From contig JBHLOI010000084.1 of NCBI GenBank assembly GCA_048940645.1, positions 1 through 11,933 on the forward strand: a DNA stretch of 11,933 nt, in the 5' to 3' direction. The notes below the pieces were generated by a model. It saw nothing but the letters and a program-made list of their open reading frames with translations. It ran no database searches and was not told the origin of the DNA. Within the stretch, counting starts at the first letter, position 1; each line of letters begins with the position of its first letter. The stretch is from Promethearchaeota archaeon (GTDB taxonomy: Archaea; Asgardarchaeota; Lokiarchaeia; Sigyniarchaeales; SOKP01). The translations under genes and the position numbers were made by a program. Shown piece by piece: positions 1 to 10,089 of this stretch.

Positions 1-2
1 TA

Positions 3-1655
3 AAAAGAATTAAGAAATATGGAAGATTTGGATGCTTTTTCTGTGATGATTTGACTGCTGAATATGCTGATATATCAATAGGATCTATAGGTTCTGAACC
101 AGGTTGGTCAACTGTAATTATTCGAACAAAAAAAGGTGCTGAGTTCTTTCAAAAAGCATTAGATTTGAATTTAATTGTTAAAAAAGAAATTAAAGAGAAT
201 AGCAAGAGCTTTAATGAACTGAATAGAATTGCGAAGTCTAAATTAAAAAAATACATTAAACAACGAAGAGTAAAAATGATAGAGCAAGAACCTAGTGAGA
301 GAATCAAAAATTTTGAAGAAGTTCCATATGGTTTAACGGATGATATGATGAAACTAGAAGTACAAAGGTGTTTACAATGTGGTTTGCCTCTATGTGTAAC
401 AGGTTGTCCTGTAAATATACGAATTCCTGAGTTTATTAAACTTTTAAAAGAAGAAAAATATATTGAAGCTCTTTATAAAATTAAAGCTAGTAATCTTTTA
501 CCCGCAATTTGTGGAAGGGTTTGTCCACAAGAGACCCAATGTGAAGATACATGCTTGTTAAATTCACTTGGAGAACCTATAGCAATAGGTTATTTAGAAA
601 GATATATTGCAGATTGGGAGAGAAGAAATAAATTAAAGGAATGCCCTGATTGTGCACCTCCGAAAGGTATTAAAGTTGCAGTTATAGGCGCAGGACCTGC
701 AGGACTAACATGTGCGGGGGAATTAGCAATGAGAGGATATGATGTTACTATTTTTGAAGCATTCCACGCGGGAGGAGGTGTACTAACATACGGGATACCA
801 GAATTTAGATTACCAAAAGAAATTGTAAAAGATGAAATTGAAACATTAAAAATGCTAAATGTTAAAATAAATTACAATGCAATTATCGGAAAAACGTTAA
901 CAATAGATGATTTGAAAGAAAAAGGGTATAAAGCGTTTTTTATTGGAGTCGGAGCAGGCTTACCAACCTTTATAAAAGTAGATGGCTTAAGTTTGAATGG
1001 AGTTCTAACTGCTAATGAATTCTTAACAAGGTCTAATTTAATGAAGGCTTATAGATTTCCTGAATATGATACCCCAATAAAAATAGGAAAAAAAGTTACT
1101 GTTATAGGTGGAGGTAATGTTGCATTAGATTCAGCTAGAACTGCTCTACGGTTAGGTGCTGAACGAGTAATTATAGTATATAGAAGATCAGAGGCTGAAA
1201 TGCCTGCAAGAAGAGAGGAATATCATCATGCTTTGGAAGAGGGTGTAGAATTTCAATTTTTAACCAATCCTGTACGATTCATTGGAGCCGAAAATGATGA
1301 TGTCAAACAAATGGAAGTTATAAAAATGAAATTGGGAGAACCAGATCAATCAGGACGCAGACGACCAATTCCTATTGAAGATTCAGAATATCTGATAGAC
1401 ACTGATACAATTATCATAGCGATTGGTACAAGAGCAAATCCTATCCTCACAAAATCCATCCCGGGATTAAGATTAAACAAATTTGGATATATTGAAACTC
1501 ATGAAAATTGTAAAACAAATATAGAGGGTATTTATGCGGGAGGAGATATAGTGACTGGAAGTGCAACTGTGATATCTGCAATGGGATGTGGGAAAAAAGC
1601 TGCAAAAGCAATCGATCAATATTTACAAGACAAATATCTTAATAAAAAAGAATAA
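3..1655 (+). CDS. 5'-truncated fusion protein: F420 hydrogenase/dehydrogenase beta subunit (FrhB/FdhB) C-terminal domain joined to an NADPH-dependent Fe-S flavoprotein of the NfnB/SudA/GltD ('homotetrameric glutamate synthase') family
   Basis: The frame is open from nt 3 (KRIKKYGRFGCFFCDDLTAEYADISIGSIGSEPGWSTVIIRTKKG), matching the FrhB C-terminal GCxxCxDxxAExADISxGxxGSxxGWSTVxxRTxxG signature, so TTG51 is not the real start. From about nt 264 the sequence is NfnB/SudA-like: RVKMIEQEPSERIKNFEEV, CLQCxxxxCxxGCP, CGRVCPQETQCEDTC..LER, FAD motif GAGPAG, YGIPEFRLPK, NADP motif GGGNVALD..YRR, and GGDIVTGSATVISAMG. Confidence 0.9.
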   Translation, partial: KRIKKYGRFGCFFCDDLTAEYADISIGSIGSEPGWSTVIIRTKKGAEFFQKALDLNLIVKKEIKENSKSFNELNRIAKSKLKKYIKQRRVKMIEQEPSERIKNFEEVPYGLTDDMMKLEVQRCLQCGLPLCVTGCPVNIRIPEFIKLLKEEKYIEALYKIKASNLLPAICGRVCPQETQCEDTCLLNSLGEPIAIGYLERYIADWERRNKLKECPDCAPPKGIKVAVIGAGPAGLTCAGELAMRGYDVTIFEAFHAGGGVLTYGIPEFRLPKEIVKDEIETLKMLNVKINYNAIIGKTLTIDDLKEKGYKAFFIGVGAGLPTFIKVDGLSLNGVLTANEFLTRSNLMKAYRFPEYDTPIKIGKKVTVIGGGNVALDSARTALRLGAERVIIVYRRSEAEMPARREEYHHALEEGVEFQFLTNPVRFIGAENDDVKQMEVIKMKLGEPDQSGRRRPIPIEDSEYLIDTDTIIIAIGTRANPILTKSIPGLRLNKFGYIETHENCKTNIEGIYAGGDIVTGSATVISAMGCGKKAAKAIDQYLQDKYLNKKE

Positions 1656-2613: not shown

Positions 2614-5600
2614 ATGGTTTCTAAAATTAATATTAAAAAGTACACCTGCCCTTTTTGCGGTAATGCACTATCTTCGAGATTTTCTAGATGTTTTAATACT
2701 TACTGTCAAGGACAAAAGTTTAATCTCGGTAATCTAGTTATTTTTCGGTTAAATCCCGAATTAGGGATAGGAAGGATTATAAAAAAATTAGAAATTCCTG
2801 CTTCAAAATCATTAGATGGAGAAGATACAATTTTTATTACGAAATTTAAAGTTTTATTTAAAAATAATATCGTAAAAATTATCCATCCAATTGATCTTAT
2901 ACATAATACTTATAGCGTTAATAATAGGCTCATAACTAAAGAAGGTATTGGTGTTATAAACTCAAAAGATTTTTCTATAAAAGATGGTAAAATCTCATAC
3001 GAAATATTATTTTCTAATGGGAAAGTTTCTCAAATCGAAGAATCTGAAATTATTTCCCTGTATCAACCTACTGTAAAAAGGATAATTTCAAATAAGATAA
3101 TTGATGATCCTCAAAATTTCTTAGTAAAATACTGGGCAAATTTGTTTCATTCTTATTATACCTCATATCAGATTAAATGTATTACTAATTCTCGATTATC
3201 TCTAATGCCCCACCAAATAAATGTTGCCCATAGATTATCCGAAGAACATTTTCCAAGGGTTATATTGGCTGATGAAGTAGGTCTTGGAAAAACAATTGAA
3301 GCAGGAATTTTCATTAAAGAGATGATGGCAAGAAGCTTAGCTGAAAGGATCTTAATCATAGTTCCTGCGTCATTAACGTCACAATGGGCATTTGAGATGT
3401 TGAATAAATTCAATATCAAATTTACAATTTATGATGGAAAGAAAATTAAAGAATTAAAAGCTAGAGGGCATTATAAAGGTTCTAATATACTACAAAATCC
3501 TTTTTATTATGATAATTTAATTATATGTTCGTTACAATTCGCTAGAAACCCCAAATATATCGAATTATTGACTCAAATTTCATGGGATATTGTAATTTTC
3601 GATGAGGCTCATCATTTGAGGCGTTATTTGTTAAATGTAACTACAGGTAATTATCGGGAAACTCTTAATTATCAATTAGCTAGAAAGTTAAGTAATTCAA
3701 CCGAATCGATGCTATTATTAACAGCCACTCCGTTGCAACTTCATTCTTTTGAGTTATATTCTTTAATTGAGCTTGTTCAAAGAGAAGCTTTTGAGAACTT
3801 TTCAAACTTTGAACATTTTAGGAAGAACATGCCTTTCATTAACCTACTTGTATCAAATATCAACCAGATTAATAAGTTAAATAATTTTGAAGTAAAAAAT
3901 ACAATTAAACTTCTAAAAAGCCTTAATTATGTTGATAAGAAAAAAGATGATAAGTATATTTTAAACCTGATGAAAGAAGATTCATTCAAATTAAATCTTT
4001 TAAAAAGAGTAGAAAAAGATCATACTCTATGGAGATTCTTGATAAGAAATCGAAAAAAGAATGTTTTTACTAATGATTTATTAAATAAGAGGATTGTAAA
4101 AACTATAATGGTAAATCCATCAAAACGGGAATTAGAGACATATAATGAAATTCGTCTATATTTAGCTAATATTTACAATTCATCAATAAGTAAACAGAAT
4201 ATTGGATTGGGATTTATTATAACCACCTTGCAAAAATTATTAACTAGTTCTAAATATGCTTTTTTAAGGAGCTTAGAAAGAAGATTGGAACAAATTGAAA
4301 GGGATAAGAGCCTTTTAATGAACTTAGAAAAATTCAAAGAAGAAGATCCAGAATATTTTGAAATAGAATTAGAAGAAGAAAACATAGAAAGTGATACTAT
4401 AATTAACTTTAATAAAGCTAATACTAGTAAAAAACAAGATATATCACTAGATTTAATAAACCAAGAGAAGCTGTTAAAGAACTTTCATGATAAATTAAAA
4501 TCATTACCATATGACTCAAAATCTAATAAATTGATTGAACTACTTACCCAGATTTATAATAACAATCCTAATGAAAAGATTTTAATTTTCACTCAATTTG
4601 TAGATACATTAAACCATTTAAAACAATTATTAGAAAAGCAGGAACAAGATAGTGAAATTGAAATATTTTATGGAGGTATGGATAAAGATCAAAAAGATAA
4701 AGCTGTTGAGAGATTTAGAGCGAGTAAAAAATTTGCGATATTAATCTCGACAGAAATAGGAGGTGAAGGTAGAAATTTTCAGTTCTGTAGAGTATTAGTT
4801 AATTACGATTTACCATGGAATCCAATGAAACTAGAACAACGAATAGGAAGACTTGATCGAATTGGTCAAGAATCCAAGGAGATATATATTTACAATTTCT
4901 TCTTAGAGGGGACAATCGAGACAGATATTATTTTTGCACTCAATAAAAGAATTAATTTGTTTGAAGAATCAATAGGAATTCTGGAACCTATAATTGGAAA
5001 AATTGAAAAAGATATAAAAGAAATTATTTTTACTGAAACTGAAGGCAAAAAAAGGAAAAGATTAAATGAATTTTATCGTAGTATTGATGAACAATTTCAG
5101 AGAGCAAAGGAAATCGAAATGCAATTAGACGATTTATTAATAGACAAAAAATCATTTCGCATGGATGATTTAATCACATCATTGGAAGCTTGCGAGGAAG
5201 TTAAACTAAGTCATAATGAACTTTATCTTTTGATGAAGTGTTTTTTCGATTTAAACAATCATTTTTATGGATATTTGCGAACAAATTCTTCCAAAAGTGA
5301 AGTTTATACAACTATTCAATTAAATGAGATTTTATTAAAAAATCCTTATCTAAAACTTTCCAAAAAATATATCGGAACCTTCAATTTGAATGTCGCGCGT
5401 GAGAGAGAAGAAATTGACTTTTTTGCTTTAGGACATCCTTTAATAAACAGTGTTATAAATTTTTGCCGATCAAACACATTCAAAGGTACATATACTATTC
5501 TTAATTTAAAGAAAGTATATATACCTGAAGATAATAAATTAAGTTTAAATAGCACTCGGGAAATGTATATTCTAATTTTCAATGTTAAATTTCAAGGATA

Positions 5601-6204
5601 TATTATAGAAAATCAATATATTGCCATTGTAGTTGATAAAGTTGGTAACGAAATAGAAAACTTAGCAGATTTTATATTGGATATTGAAAATTTCCACAAA
5701 ATCTTTGAATTTAATATACATAATAATAAATTACCTCTACTAAAACAAGAATTTATGGAATCAATCATTCAAAGAGCTAAATCTATTGTTAAAAGAAAAA
5801 CTTCAATTTGGAAACAGGAAATTAAGGCATTAAATGATAAAATCTTCACTCTAGAAAGGAATAAAAAAGAAAAAATTTATGAATATAAAAGTAAAGTTTT
5901 GAATCTAAAAATAGAAGGATTAAAGAGGAAATTGGAAAAAAAAGAAAGACAAAAGCCGACAGAAAGACAATTGAAAAATATCTCAAATCTAACAGATGAG
6001 GTTAGAAAAGAAGAGAAAAAGATAAAGATAAAACAACTAGAAGAGGATATTCTTTTTCTTAATAAAGATATTAGATTAACAAACAAAAAAATTGATGATT
6101 TGTTATTTGAATTTGAAGATATTAAAAAAGAAATGACTCAACGAAATTTAGCTAAATTCTATACTAATTTAGATGCTTTTGCTATTATACGATTAGTTGA
6201 TTAA
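2614..6204 (+). CDS. RapA/HepA-family SNF2 ATPase with N-terminal zinc ribbon, tandem Tudor/SH3-like repeats and C-terminal coiled coil
   Basis: Helicase motifs: PHQ, motif I ADEVGLGKT, Ia IIVPASLTSQW, II DEAH, III LTATP, IV LIFTQF, V STEIGGEGRNFQF, NYDLPWNP, VI EQRIGRLDRIGQ. It also has the RapA-like C-terminal segment GTFNLNVAREREEIDFFALGHPLI and an N-terminal CPFC-x10-C-x4-C. Confidence 0.9.
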   Translation: MVSKINIKKYTCPFCGNALSSRFSRCFNTYCQGQKFNLGNLVIFRLNPELGIGRIIKKLEIPASKSLDGEDTIFITKFKVLFKNNIVKIIHPIDLIHNTYSVNNRLITKEGIGVINSKDFSIKDGKISYEILFSNGKVSQIEESEIISLYQPTVKRIISNKIIDDPQNFLVKYWANLFHSYYTSYQIKCITNSRLSLMPHQINVAHRLSEEHFPRVILADEVGLGKTIEAGIFIKEMMARSLAERILIIVPASLTSQWAFEMLNKFNIKFTIYDGKKIKELKARGHYKGSNILQNPFYYDNLIICSLQFARNPKYIELLTQISWDIVIFDEAHHLRRYLLNVTTGNYRETLNYQLARKLSNSTESMLLLTATPLQLHSFELYSLIELVQREAFENFSNFEHFRKNMPFINLLVSNINQINKLNNFEVKNTIKLLKSLNYVDKKKDDKYILNLMKEDSFKLNLLKRVEKDHTLWRFLIRNRKKNVFTNDLLNKRIVKTIMVNPSKRELETYNEIRLYLANIYNSSISKQNIGLGFIITTLQKLLTSSKYAFLRSLERRLEQIERDKSLLMNLEKFKEEDPEYFEIELEEENIESDTIINFNKANTSKKQDISLDLINQEKLLKNFHDKLKSLPYDSKSNKLIELLTQIYNNNPNEKILIFTQFVDTLNHLKQLLEKQEQDSEIEIFYGGMDKDQKDKAVERFRASKKFAILISTEIGGEGRNFQFCRVLVNYDLPWNPMKLEQRIGRLDRIGQESKEIYIYNFFLEGTIETDIIFALNKRINLFEESIGILEPIIGKIEKDIKEIIFTETEGKKRKRLNEFYRSIDEQFQRAKEIEMQLDDLLIDKKSFRMDDLITSLEACEEVKLSHNELYLLMKCFFDLNNHFYGYLRTNSSKSEVYTTIQLNEILLKNPYLKLSKKYIGTFNLNVAREREEIDFFALGHPLINSVINFCRSNTFKGTYTILNLKKVYIPEDNKLSLNSTREMYILIFNVKFQGYIIENQYIAIVVDKVGNEIENLADFILDIENFHKIFEFNIHNNKLPLLKQEFMESIIQRAKSIVKRKTSIWKQEIKALNDKIFTLERNKKEKIYEYKSKVLNLKIEGLKRKLEKKERQKPTERQLKNISNLTDEVRKEEKKIKIKQLEEDILFLNKDIRLTNKKIDDLLFEFEDIKKEMTQRNLAKFYTNLDAFAIIRLVD

Positions 6205-6262
6205 ACTAAAGTTTACAAAAACTTTAAATGATGAATCTTCATTAGTAATGATGGTGACACTA

Positions 6263-6661
6263 ATGTCAAATCCAACGACGGAAGATGCCTCTTTATTTCT
6301 CCAATTATTTGGAATAATGATGGGAGATTTGGAATTTAGGAAAGCTTGGAGATGGATATTTGAAGAATTAGATGTGAAGAGTTATGATGATTTTAAAGCA
6401 AAATATCCATTGAAGAGTGAAGAAAATAGAAACGTTCGAATTTTCACTGGTTATATGGAAATGTTAGCTACTCTAGTAAACAAGGGACTTATTAGTGAAG
6501 ATTTAATCTTTGACTTATGGGGCTCACTAACTTGGGAAAAATTAGAAACTCTTGTTCATGGCATCCGAAAAGATATCGGAATGCCTAGATATTTAGAGAA
6601 TTATGAAGTTTTAGCTAAGAAATATATATATTGGGCAGAAAAGAACCCTCCCAAAGTTTGA
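6263..6661 (+). CDS. Small alpha-helical hypothetical protein, DUF4760-like (about 132 aa)
   Basis: Contains the pattern GYMEMLATLVNKGLISEDLIFD..WEKL..R..P..LENYEVLA, typical of DUF4760-type proteins. I moved the start from TTG6197 to ATG6263 because GGTGA (6253-6257) lies 5 nt upstream and a TTTAAAT box sits at about 6223-6229. Confidence 0.65.
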   Translation: MSNPTTEDASLFLQLFGIMMGDLEFRKAWRWIFEELDVKSYDDFKAKYPLKSEENRNVRIFTGYMEMLATLVNKGLISEDLIFDLWGSLTWEKLETLVHGIRKDIGMPRYLENYEVLAKKYIYWAEKNPPKV

Positions 6662-9351: not shown

Positions 9352-9891
9352 TTATTTATATTTGTTATATAACAGTTCTATTATGGTTTTAAATGCATAA
9401 TCAACATTCTCTCCGGTTTTTGCAGATGTTTGGTAAACTCCTATAATTTTCTTCTTGTTTATAATTTTATTGACTTTTTTATTATCTATTTCATTCTTAT
9501 TAACTAAATCTACTTTATTAGCAAAAATAATGACTGGTATATCACCACAAAAATTTTTAATCTCATTGTGCCAATCCTTAACATTGGTAAGACTCCGAAC
9601 ACCCAAATCATTTTCCTCAAGCGAATATACAATTATGGCTCCCTTACTTTCTTTATAAAACGATGGTCGTAAGAAATGAAAACTATCCTGTCCAGCTATA
9701 TCCCATAAAAAAAGTACGCATTCATCATCATTTATTTTTTGGTTGTACACAGAGAATTGTGCTCCTATAGTTGGAATATAATCGTCTTCAAAGCCACCTT
9801 GAGTAAATCTATTAATAAGAGAGGTTTTTCCAACAGCCCCATCACCAATAACAATAATTTTAAAGATAAATTTTTTAGGAGTCTCTTTCAT
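9352..9891 (-). CDS. Rab-like small GTPase (Ras superfamily), about 179 aa
   Basis: G1 GDGAVGKT, G2 YIPTIG, G3 WDIAGQ, G4 NKVD and G5 TSAK are all present. I placed the start at ATG9891 (MKETPKKFIFK) because a TATTTAAAT box on the - strand (9930-9922) is about 31 nt upstream and too close to ATG9915 for that codon to be the start. Confidence 0.93.
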   Translation of the reverse strand: MKETPKKFIFKIIVIGDGAVGKTSLINRFTQGGFEDDYIPTIGAQFSVYNQKINDDECVLFLWDIAGQDSFHFLRPSFYKESKGAIIVYSLEENDLGVRSLTNVKDWHNEIKNFCGDIPVIIFANKVDLVNKNEIDNKKVNKIINKKKIIGVYQTSAKTGENVDYAFKTIIELLYNKYK

Positions 9892-10089
9892 CAAAAATAA
9901 CCATAAAATACCCATTTCCTAATTTAAATATCATAATTAATTATTTCAAAAAAATTTTTCTTTATTCGATTAAAAATTTTTAAATAGACTATTTCGAATC
10001 CAGTATATTATTGGAGCTTTGAAATTTTTCATAAAGTTATAAACACCTTGAGTAATTTTAATATATATACAAGCTAAGGAAGGATCACT

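Follow-up and report, generated by a model that had tools for sequence, protein, structure and literature searches.

An FrhB–NfnB fusion gene of a Promethearchaeota archaeon, candidate large subunit of an F420-linked Nfn-type transhydrogenase

Which enzyme is encoded at the very beginning of contig JBHLOI010000084.1 of a Promethearchaeota archaeon, where the C-terminal end of a domain of the F420-binding FrhB type runs into an NADPH flavoprotein of the NfnB type? The window considered here, that is, the whole stretch of 11,933 bases analysed, is the first part of this contig (C35), which belongs to a 3.83 Mb genome in 126 contigs (89.6% complete, 3.7% contamination). A first-pass annotation, made from the letters alone, had proposed that the frame is open from the window edge and that it joins the FrhB C-terminus to a complete NfnB with no stop codon. 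Both proposals hold. The open reading frame (ORF) at 3–1655 of the forward strand encodes 550 residues, where Pfam recognises, without intervening stop codon, FrhB_FdhB_C (window-ORF residues 3–64, profile positions 87–148 of 150, 64 bits), Fer4_20 (residues 100–210, 132 bits) and Pyr_redox_2 (residues 224–527, 134 bits). Since the G+C content of the window is 26–34%, long open frames are not expected there by chance. Window positions 3–1655 are thus the 3′ end of a single uninterrupted FrhB–NfnB fusion gene.

The 5′ part of this gene was found at the end of another contig, C115, whose last 77 bases are those of window 1–77, in the same frame. No longer overlap exists between the two contigs, and this one looks like a k-mer overlap left by the assembler. 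The complete gene encodes 915 residues, with its 5′ 1170 nt on C115 (L006:3573–4742) and its 3′ 1653 nt in the window (residues 366–915 and the stop codon). The terminal open ORF of C115 contributes an N-terminal domain of about 110 residues, a 2×[4Fe-4S] ferredoxin domain with two CxxCxxCxxxCP motifs, FrhB_FdhB_N and the start of FrhB_FdhB_C. The FrhB N-terminal domain, which the first-pass annotation expected upstream of the window, is therefore present, with a score of 70.6 bits. The domain order of the whole protein is a winged-helix-like N-terminus, the ferredoxin domain, a complete FrhB and a complete NfnB, and alignment with public proteins of 910–915 residues (90–91% identity) is free of gaps over the contig joint.

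The two catalytic modules are joined nearly end to end, since alignments to the solved FrhB chains stop near residue 445 of the full protein, while those to the solved NfnB chains set in at about residue 451. In window numbering, the NfnB chains align from window-ORF residue 86, which leaves at most about 10–20 residues for a true linker. The segment at 195–257 (+; window-ORF residues 65–85) corresponds to FrhB's C-terminal helix and a short basic joint, and an internal ATG at 276–278 (+) encodes M457 of the full protein. Some public annotations place the start of the gene at internal codons around here, so that the NfnB part looks like an independent gene. The junction lies at the N-terminus of the cluster-bearing domain of NfnB. 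A full-length AlphaFold2 (AF2) model was obtained with a pLDDT of 81.7 and a pTM of 0.78. A two-chain prediction of the ferredoxin–FrhB part against the NfnB part, with 48-row alignments for each, scored 0.00 and was not used as evidence.

The fusion is not restricted to this contig. Contig C118 encodes a paralog whose DNA is 75% identical over window 1–438; from its own start, it reads through the ferredoxin domain and FrhB and crosses the joint, reaching Fer4_20 before the end of the contig. A word-indexed search with the joint region (residues 1–140) against 5.8 billion proteins gave about 100 protein clusters of 900–935 residues sharing the same Pfam content; these derive from JGI, ENA, NCBI and Logan assemblies, and their source, where named, is Promethearchaeota/Lokiarchaeota-type metagenome-assembled genomes (MAGs). 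An exhaustive HMMER search with residues 1–215 against 1.84 billion representatives at 50% identity found one full-length protein over the joint (360 bits) and one fragment of 111 residues; the next matches, at 162 bits or less, cover the NfnB part only. The first-pass annotation suggested looking for the same architecture across Asgard and other genomes, and the joint is present in 36 of 301 sampled Asgard genomes, all belonging to a single GTDB family (35 of the 68 members sampled; 5 of 70 genera). The 42 genomic matches of the joint are all open frames, of 853–938 residues, with zero stops. Thirty-two loci from species-representative genomes were fetched, and the fused ORF is whole and uninterrupted in 25 of them (862–928 residues) and truncated by the contig or locus end in six. 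In the remaining one, L036, a single in-frame TAA (L036:5058–5060) replaces the conserved Glu of the DDLTAE motif of FrhB_C in an otherwise intact frame, pointing either to an error of sequencing or to a pseudogene of recent origin. Paralog, clusters, loci, genome sample and exhaustive search together show that the fusion is real, conserved and phylogenetically narrow.

Judging from its sequence, the C-terminal module is an NfnB orthologue and not a glutamate synthase small subunit. Alignment to the solved NfnB/NfnL chains delimits a complete module at 258–1652 (+). It comprises a Fer4_20 domain (300–632, +) for the two NfnB [4Fe-4S] clusters, with cysteines at nt 369–554 and a CPQE motif, followed by Pyr_redox_2 (672–1583, +), which covers the Rossmann domains for flavin adenine dinucleotide (FAD; the bifurcating flavin in Nfn) and for NADPH. 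The module matches Thermotoga maritima NfnB (4YLF_B) with an E-value of 5.8e-167 and Pyrococcus furiosus NfnI-L (5JCA_L) with 3.3e-157, and other relatives more weakly (1e-81 for Azospirillum GltD, 6S6S_G; 1e-54 for DPD). The same two NfnB chains are also top-ranked by Foldseek when compared with the AF2 model (TM 0.86–0.88, 54–55% identity). Conservation was counted over 69–78 homologues of 59–91% identity; the eight cysteines of the Fer4_20 domain are invariant or 99% conserved among 78 of them, and the CPQE motif is identical to that of T. maritima NfnB.

The expected partner is encoded next to the fusion. Whether nfnA lies near the fusion had been raised in the first-pass annotation, and an NfnA/NfnS gene is found directly upstream on C115 (L006:2702–3586), overlapping the fusion start. 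Its product, which keeps the DGTGMCGxC motif of the [2Fe-2S] cluster, matches the small subunit of P. furiosus NfnI (5JCA_S) at 1.5e-83 and 4YLF_A at 8.4e-74. The paralog on C118 is likewise accompanied by a separate nfnA. In 30 of the 32 loci nfnA stands immediately before the fusion, usually overlapping its start, the other two being without upstream sequence; it is 68–93% identical in 29 loci and is the only gene universally linked to the fusion. This association implies a heteromer of the NfnAB type, with an NAD(H) site, to which the fusion contributes the large subunit, and the idea of a single-chain enzyme, as initially put forward, has to be abandoned.

A further CxxC pair, C579/C582 (KECPDC, listed at 1737–1748), is 95–97% conserved in the Asgard fusion proteins. 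It lies where the cluster domain gives way to the Rossmann fold for FAD and is absent from the aligned NfnB chains of T. maritima and P. furiosus.

For the FrhB module, the part encoded on C115 (P0002) scores above the Pfam cut-offs, with 70.6 bits for FrhB_N and 101.8 bits for FrhB_C, as does the paralog (P0003; 72 and 146 bits). The closest solved relatives are two proteins of Ca. Ethanoperedens thermophilum, the zeta subunit of carbon monoxide dehydrogenase (CODH; 8RIU_B, 3e-55) and FwdI (8RJA_E, 5e-48), followed by FrhB of the hydrogenase Frh (4e-50) and by the F420H2-dependent sulfite reductase Fsr (2e-40), as against 7e-4 for HCAR (5DQR), which does not use F420. Zeta and FwdI are units made of a ferredoxin domain and FrhB, which bridge the clusters of CODH or Fwd to F420 and confer F420-reductase activity (Lemaire et al., PMC11493965). 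In the window, the C-terminal third of FrhB_FdhB_C extends over 9–194 (+), as defined by Pfam and by alignments to FrhB (3ZFS_C) and to the F420-reductase subunit 8RIU_B.

The residues expected around the cofactors are retained. In Methanothermobacter marburgensis FrhB, the [4Fe-4S] ligands are Cys104, 134, 192 and 195, and the other features named are a helix at the FAD pyrophosphate and, beside the F420 ring, an IGKGK turn and the S209/V210 loop, the loop being seen there in the Frh cryo-EM map (Mills et al., PMC3591093). The cysteines C288, C317, C376 and C379 of the fusion align with these ligands and are invariant in the 78 homologues; C376 and C379, the third and fourth ligands, are encoded in the window at 33–44 (+) as a CFFC motif aligned with Cys192/Cys195. 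More generally, the 8+4+8 cluster cysteines of the whole fusion are all invariant or 99% conserved. The FAD motif AQDGGIVT, matching the FAD-pyrophosphate helix, is conserved. The F420-proximal turn, of the form I-x-KG-K/R, is conserved, its residues I346, K348 and G349 being at least 90% conserved or invariant, and in the F420-proximal loop, a GSIGS sequence at 81–95 (+) that aligns with the S209/V210 loop, G392 and S393 do not vary and I394 is kept in at least 90% of the homologues. The protein scores 224 bits with the frhB equivalog TIGR03289, under its cut-off of 331.5, and is thus not FrhB proper as defined by this family. The module is predicted to be of the F420 type, that is, an F420 oxidoreductase with FAD and a [4Fe-4S] cluster.

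The genome is equipped for F420. It contains biosynthesis genes for CofD, two CofE, and CofG with a CofH-like neighbour, as well as an F420-dependent methylene-tetrahydromethanopterin (methylene-H4MPT) dehydrogenase, Mtd, on contig C52 (366 bits); within the GTDB family, 104 of 121 genomes have a CofG match above cut-off. In this 90%-complete genome, no match above cut-off was obtained for Fno (TIGR01915), for FrhA or for canonical Mer. About 12 FrhB_C matches were counted, in varied fusions.

How could these modules work together? In Nfn, the two [4Fe-4S] clusters of NfnB normally pass their electron to a free ferredoxin. The reading we favour, with a probability of roughly 55%, is that of an NfnAB-type bifurcating transhydrogenase whose low-potential branch would be wired to F420 through the fused ferredoxin and FrhB modules. 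NADPH would reduce the bifurcating FAD in NfnB, from which one electron would travel through the [2Fe-2S] cluster and the FAD of NfnA to NAD+, and the other one through the two NfnB [4Fe-4S] clusters, the clusters of the fused ferredoxin domain and the FrhB [4Fe-4S] cluster to the FrhB FAD, which would collect two electrons and transfer a hydride to F420. At the distal cluster of NfnB, the fused ferredoxin domain may stand in for free ferredoxin, as the analogy with Fsr, CODH-zeta and FwdI suggests. The net reaction, reversible, would be 2 NADPH + NAD+ + F420 ⇌ 2 NADP+ + NADH + F420H2, and could bring F420 to a very reduced state provided that the NADP pool is reduced and the NAD pool oxidised. 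We infer in this scheme the docking of the ferredoxin domain on the distal NfnB cluster, the use of F420 as substrate, the direction and the stoichiometry. Of the two functions originally offered for the fusion, a plain F420:NADP oxidoreductase suits these data less well than an Nfn variant in which F420 is a further carrier.

Several points weigh against this assignment. With a midpoint potential of about −340 mV, F420 is not a low-potential acceptor, and the NAD, NADP and F420 couples all lie near −320 to −340 mV, so that, at standard state, thermodynamics does not call for bifurcation. It may also be that free ferredoxin still serves as a substrate. The FrhB fold includes users of other substrates, such as HCAR. 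Even within its family, the fusion has a patchy distribution (35 of the 68 sampled genomes) and is missing from several genomes of 98–100% completeness, which means that it is not essential. Lastly, in a genome that is only 90% complete, the lack of Fno and FrhA is not proven.

One tentative and rather doubtful extension of the favoured scheme is that bifurcation occurs among hydride carriers only, NADPH being split to NAD+ and F420 without free ferredoxin, and the F420 pool of these Lokiarchaeia being pushed far below its midpoint of −340 mV because its reduction is coupled to the downhill branch from NADPH to NAD+. If true, neither an F420-reducing hydrogenase nor Fno would be needed to drive reductive steps of H4MPT/C1 metabolism and other reductions that depend on F420H2.

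Among the rival explanations, the one that survives best, itself rather doubtful, is a hub between four carriers, in which FrhB would be an additional port and the complex would interconvert ferredoxin, F420, NAD and NADP. Free ferredoxin would still dock at the distal NfnB cluster or at the fused ferredoxin domain, allowing for example reduced ferredoxin to drive the reduction of F420 and NADP. Ferredoxin would be the thermodynamically more sensible low-potential partner, and the clusters of the ferredoxin domain, though within the chain, could be surface-exposed. The organism is also rich in ferredoxin-linked enzymes, among them an aldehyde:ferredoxin oxidoreductase encoded divergently upstream on C115, and a ferredoxin-to-F420 route would be needed since canonical Fno and FrhA were not found. 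Against this, the ferredoxin and FrhB unit of Fsr, CODH-zeta and FwdI is a terminal wire, for which free ferredoxin is not needed.

It seems improbable that the complex is a non-bifurcating F420H2:NADP+ oxidoreductase, with electrons moving only between the FrhB and NfnB flavins and with NfnA and NAD dispensable. The near-equal potentials of the F420 and NADP couples, and the fact that a canonical Fno was not detected in the genome, would suit such an activity, but in 30 of 32 loci nfnA is retained beside the fusion, with translational coupling and high conservation, and the NfnB module keeps its Nfn-grade identity. That the FrhB-like domain works without F420, on another substrate or as a mere FAD and iron–sulfur (FeS) relay like HCAR or BciB-type members, is about as unlikely. 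The fold does perform non-F420 chemistry in HCAR, itself a weak match here, and the dozen or so FrhB paralogs in varied fusions suggest functional diversification; yet proven F420 modules match the module far better (1e-55 to 1e-40) than HCAR does, its F420-proximal motifs are conserved, and the genome contains both F420 biosynthesis genes and the F420-dependent Mtd.

Very little speaks for the small subunit of glutamate synthase (GOGAT), GltD, which is the identity that current annotation suggests. The protein clusters are named ‘NADPH-dependent glutamate synthase’ or ‘Coenzyme F420 hydrogenase/dehydrogenase beta subunit’ in the databases, as the first-pass annotation had anticipated for the former name, which arises because the fusion scores above the cut-off of NCBIfam TIGR01316 ‘gltA’. 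In a few related loci, the gene after the fusion also encodes a glutamate dehydrogenase. The identity of the module is nevertheless Nfn-grade and not GltD-grade, its partner gene is nfnA, and the FGltS types described so far combine FrhB homologues with GltB-type subunits, not with GltD. No GltB gene is present in the window or on C115, and no convincing GltB core domain was found in the 90%-complete genome, the best PF01645 match being of 32.5 bits over 118 of 369 positions. The GOGAT small subunit was rejected on these grounds. Weaker still, an assembly artefact or a strain-specific read-through of two neighbouring genes, which the position of the window at a contig end, the 5′ part on another contig and the in-frame stop of one related MAG might evoke, has a vanishingly small chance of being true and was rejected, since the joint lies 190–260 nt inside the contig and is read through without stops in two paralogs of this genome, in about 100 clusters from independent samples and in 42 genomic matches, the sole stop, that of L036, sitting in FrhB_C and not in the linker.

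Automatic annotation has a second effect on how this family is perceived. NCBI records of 454–485 residues, which look like ‘unfused’ Asgard NfnB, nest inside the fused clade in the tree. The three that were traced (P0102, P0103 and P0112) are exact C-terminal substrings of uninterrupted ORFs of 912–915 residues, and on contigs L013, L011 and L022 the corresponding ‘NADPH-dependent glutamate synthase’ records of 467–477 residues begin at internal codons. Gene calls with internal starts thus explain the apparent unfused forms within the fused clade, which are no sign of repeated fission. An identity of the fusion with Fno (npdG) was rejected as well, the fold being different and PF03807 giving just a Rossmann-level match of 24 bits.

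The fusion combines two known kinds of system, NfnAB and plug-in F420 reductase modules. As the first-pass annotation had supposed, we found no description of an FrhB–NfnB fusion in the literature, within a search of limited reach into subscription papers; the nearest descriptions are FGltS, the FrhB paralogs of anaerobic methanotrophic archaea (ANME), the HdrA–NfnB chimeras and the Ethanoperedens modules. With NfnAB of T. maritima and P. furiosus, the system shares adjacent subunit genes, a large module of about 55% identity that has both [4Fe-4S] motifs, CPQE included, and the FAD/NADPH domains, and a small subunit with FAD/NAD and [2Fe-2S] motifs. It differs by about 450 extra N-terminal residues on the large subunit (the winged-helix-like, ferredoxin and FrhB parts), by the additional conserved CxxC pair C579/C582, and by the probable replacement or supplementation of free ferredoxin by F420. 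CODH zeta (8RIU_B) and FwdI (8RJA_E) show the same succession of a 2×[4Fe-4S] ferredoxin domain and FrhB, and the same rewiring of a ferredoxin outlet to F420 (PMC11493965); they are separate subunits on CODH or Fwd, whereas the module is here covalently bound to NfnB and carries an extra N-terminal helical domain. Fsr (7NP8/7NPA) also has ferredoxin and FrhB covalently on one chain with a redox enzyme, but this enzyme is a C-terminal siroheme sulfite reductase, with no second subunit and no pyridine nucleotide.

Other comparisons are more distant. In FGltS(I)/(II) of methanogens and in the FrhB10 clusters of ANME, an FrhB homologue is likewise tied to ‘glutamate synthase’ genes. These putatively F420-dependent systems have FrhB replacing GltD beside GltB-type catalytic subunits, whereas the present fusion joins FrhB to a GltD-fold NfnB orthologue, with an NfnA partner and no convincing GltB in the genome. 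The HdrA–NfnB chimeras of ANME-1 (HdrA9–11; PMC9012536) illustrate another grafting of an archaeal NfnB module onto an electron-transfer protein, but there NfnB is inserted in HdrA's ferredoxin domain and FrhB is not involved. Fno, the NADPH-dependent F420 reductase, would connect the same two cofactor pools, with an unrelated fold and neither flavin nor FeS cluster.

Nfn is the textbook minimal electron-bifurcating enzyme and, to our knowledge, free ferredoxin has until now been the end point of its low-potential branch in every case. An Nfn that is hard-wired to F420 in nature would be a new coupling mode. It would also offer a candidate route for F420 reduction in these Asgard archaea, which make F420 and have an F420-dependent Mtd and a dozen FrhB paralogs, whereas no canonical Frh hydrogenase or Fno was found in this genome. 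This would be relevant to metabolic models of these archaeal relatives of eukaryotes (Wood–Ljungdahl pathway, syntrophy, redox balancing), in which the gene is now a ‘glutamate synthase’. The fusion and nfnA form a compact two-gene target for expression and cryo-EM.

The N-terminal domain of about 112 residues (L006:3573–3908 on C115) is conserved and helical, with a core resembling a winged-helix or helix-turn-helix (HTH) domain, which is unusual on a redox enzyme. It is modelled with a pLDDT of 87.6. Foldseek gave no significant PDB match for it, only a local likeness over about 45 residues to winged-helix, Z-alpha and AsnC-type HTH domains, and its Pfam matches to HVO_A0114 and CggR_N are both sub-threshold. 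This domain could add a redox-linked regulatory or docking function.

Besides nfnA, two genes recur near the fusion. One encodes a protein like methylene-H4MPT dehydrogenases of the Mpt_N type (MtdA/B-like, NAD(P)-type), the other a protein of 241 residues without Pfam or NCBIfam match, whose only look-alikes are ‘hypothetical’ proteins of Promethearchaeota. On contig C118 they lie at L007:2507–3502 and 3550–4275 on the minus strand, upstream of nfnA and the paralogous fusion. In five loci, and likewise on C118, this gene pair comes before the paralog type of 928 residues (type-2) and shares its strand; in four loci it is found divergently upstream of the 910-residue type (type-1). The recurring Mpt_N neighbour hints at a link of the fusion to H4MPT C1 metabolism and NADPH.

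Other FrhB proteins of this genome are built in different ways. On C20 (L075:2030–4492, −), an 820-residue chimera has Fer4_20 and Pyr_redox_2 inserted between FrhB_N (residues 75–145) and FrhB_C (667–739), its gene coming after those of an MvhD/FlpD protein and of a hydrogenase small-subunit-like protein (Oxidored_q6). On C59 (L080:1081–2898, +), a protein of 605 residues associates a ferredoxin domain and FrhB with a C-terminal PyrK/NfnA-like [2Fe-2S] module (DHODB_Fe-S_bind, 559–594). FrhB is thus fused in this genome to NfnA-like as well as to NfnB-like partners. Two stand-alone proteins of 500–508 residues, on C107 (L077:3360–4862, −) and C13 (L079:1326–2852, −), consist of an N-terminal domain of about 150 residues, 2×[4Fe-4S] and FrhB. 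Their ferredoxin–FrhB part is 42–44% identical to that of the fusion, and the N-terminal domain of the C107 copy is 34% identical to the N-terminus of the fusion over 73 residues. Their genes adjoin either another ferredoxin–FrhB gene together with that of an HdrD-like CCG protein, or a polyferredoxin gene. Both proteins are possible unfused precursors of the fused module.

In the window itself, the fusion is followed by a convergent gene at 1671–2543 (−), a conserved neighbour in nine related loci. It encodes a 290-residue FeS protein related to reductive dehalogenases and QueG, with a Fer4_7 match and a TIGR02486 score of 67 bits, below the cut-off of 160. A SNF2-family helicase of 1196 residues is then encoded at 2614–6204 (+), overlapped by a DUF4760 gene at 6197–6661 (+). 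Further downstream, the gene at 9352–9915 (−) encodes a Ras-family small GTPase (E-value 2e-43), which fits the Asgard origin of the contig.

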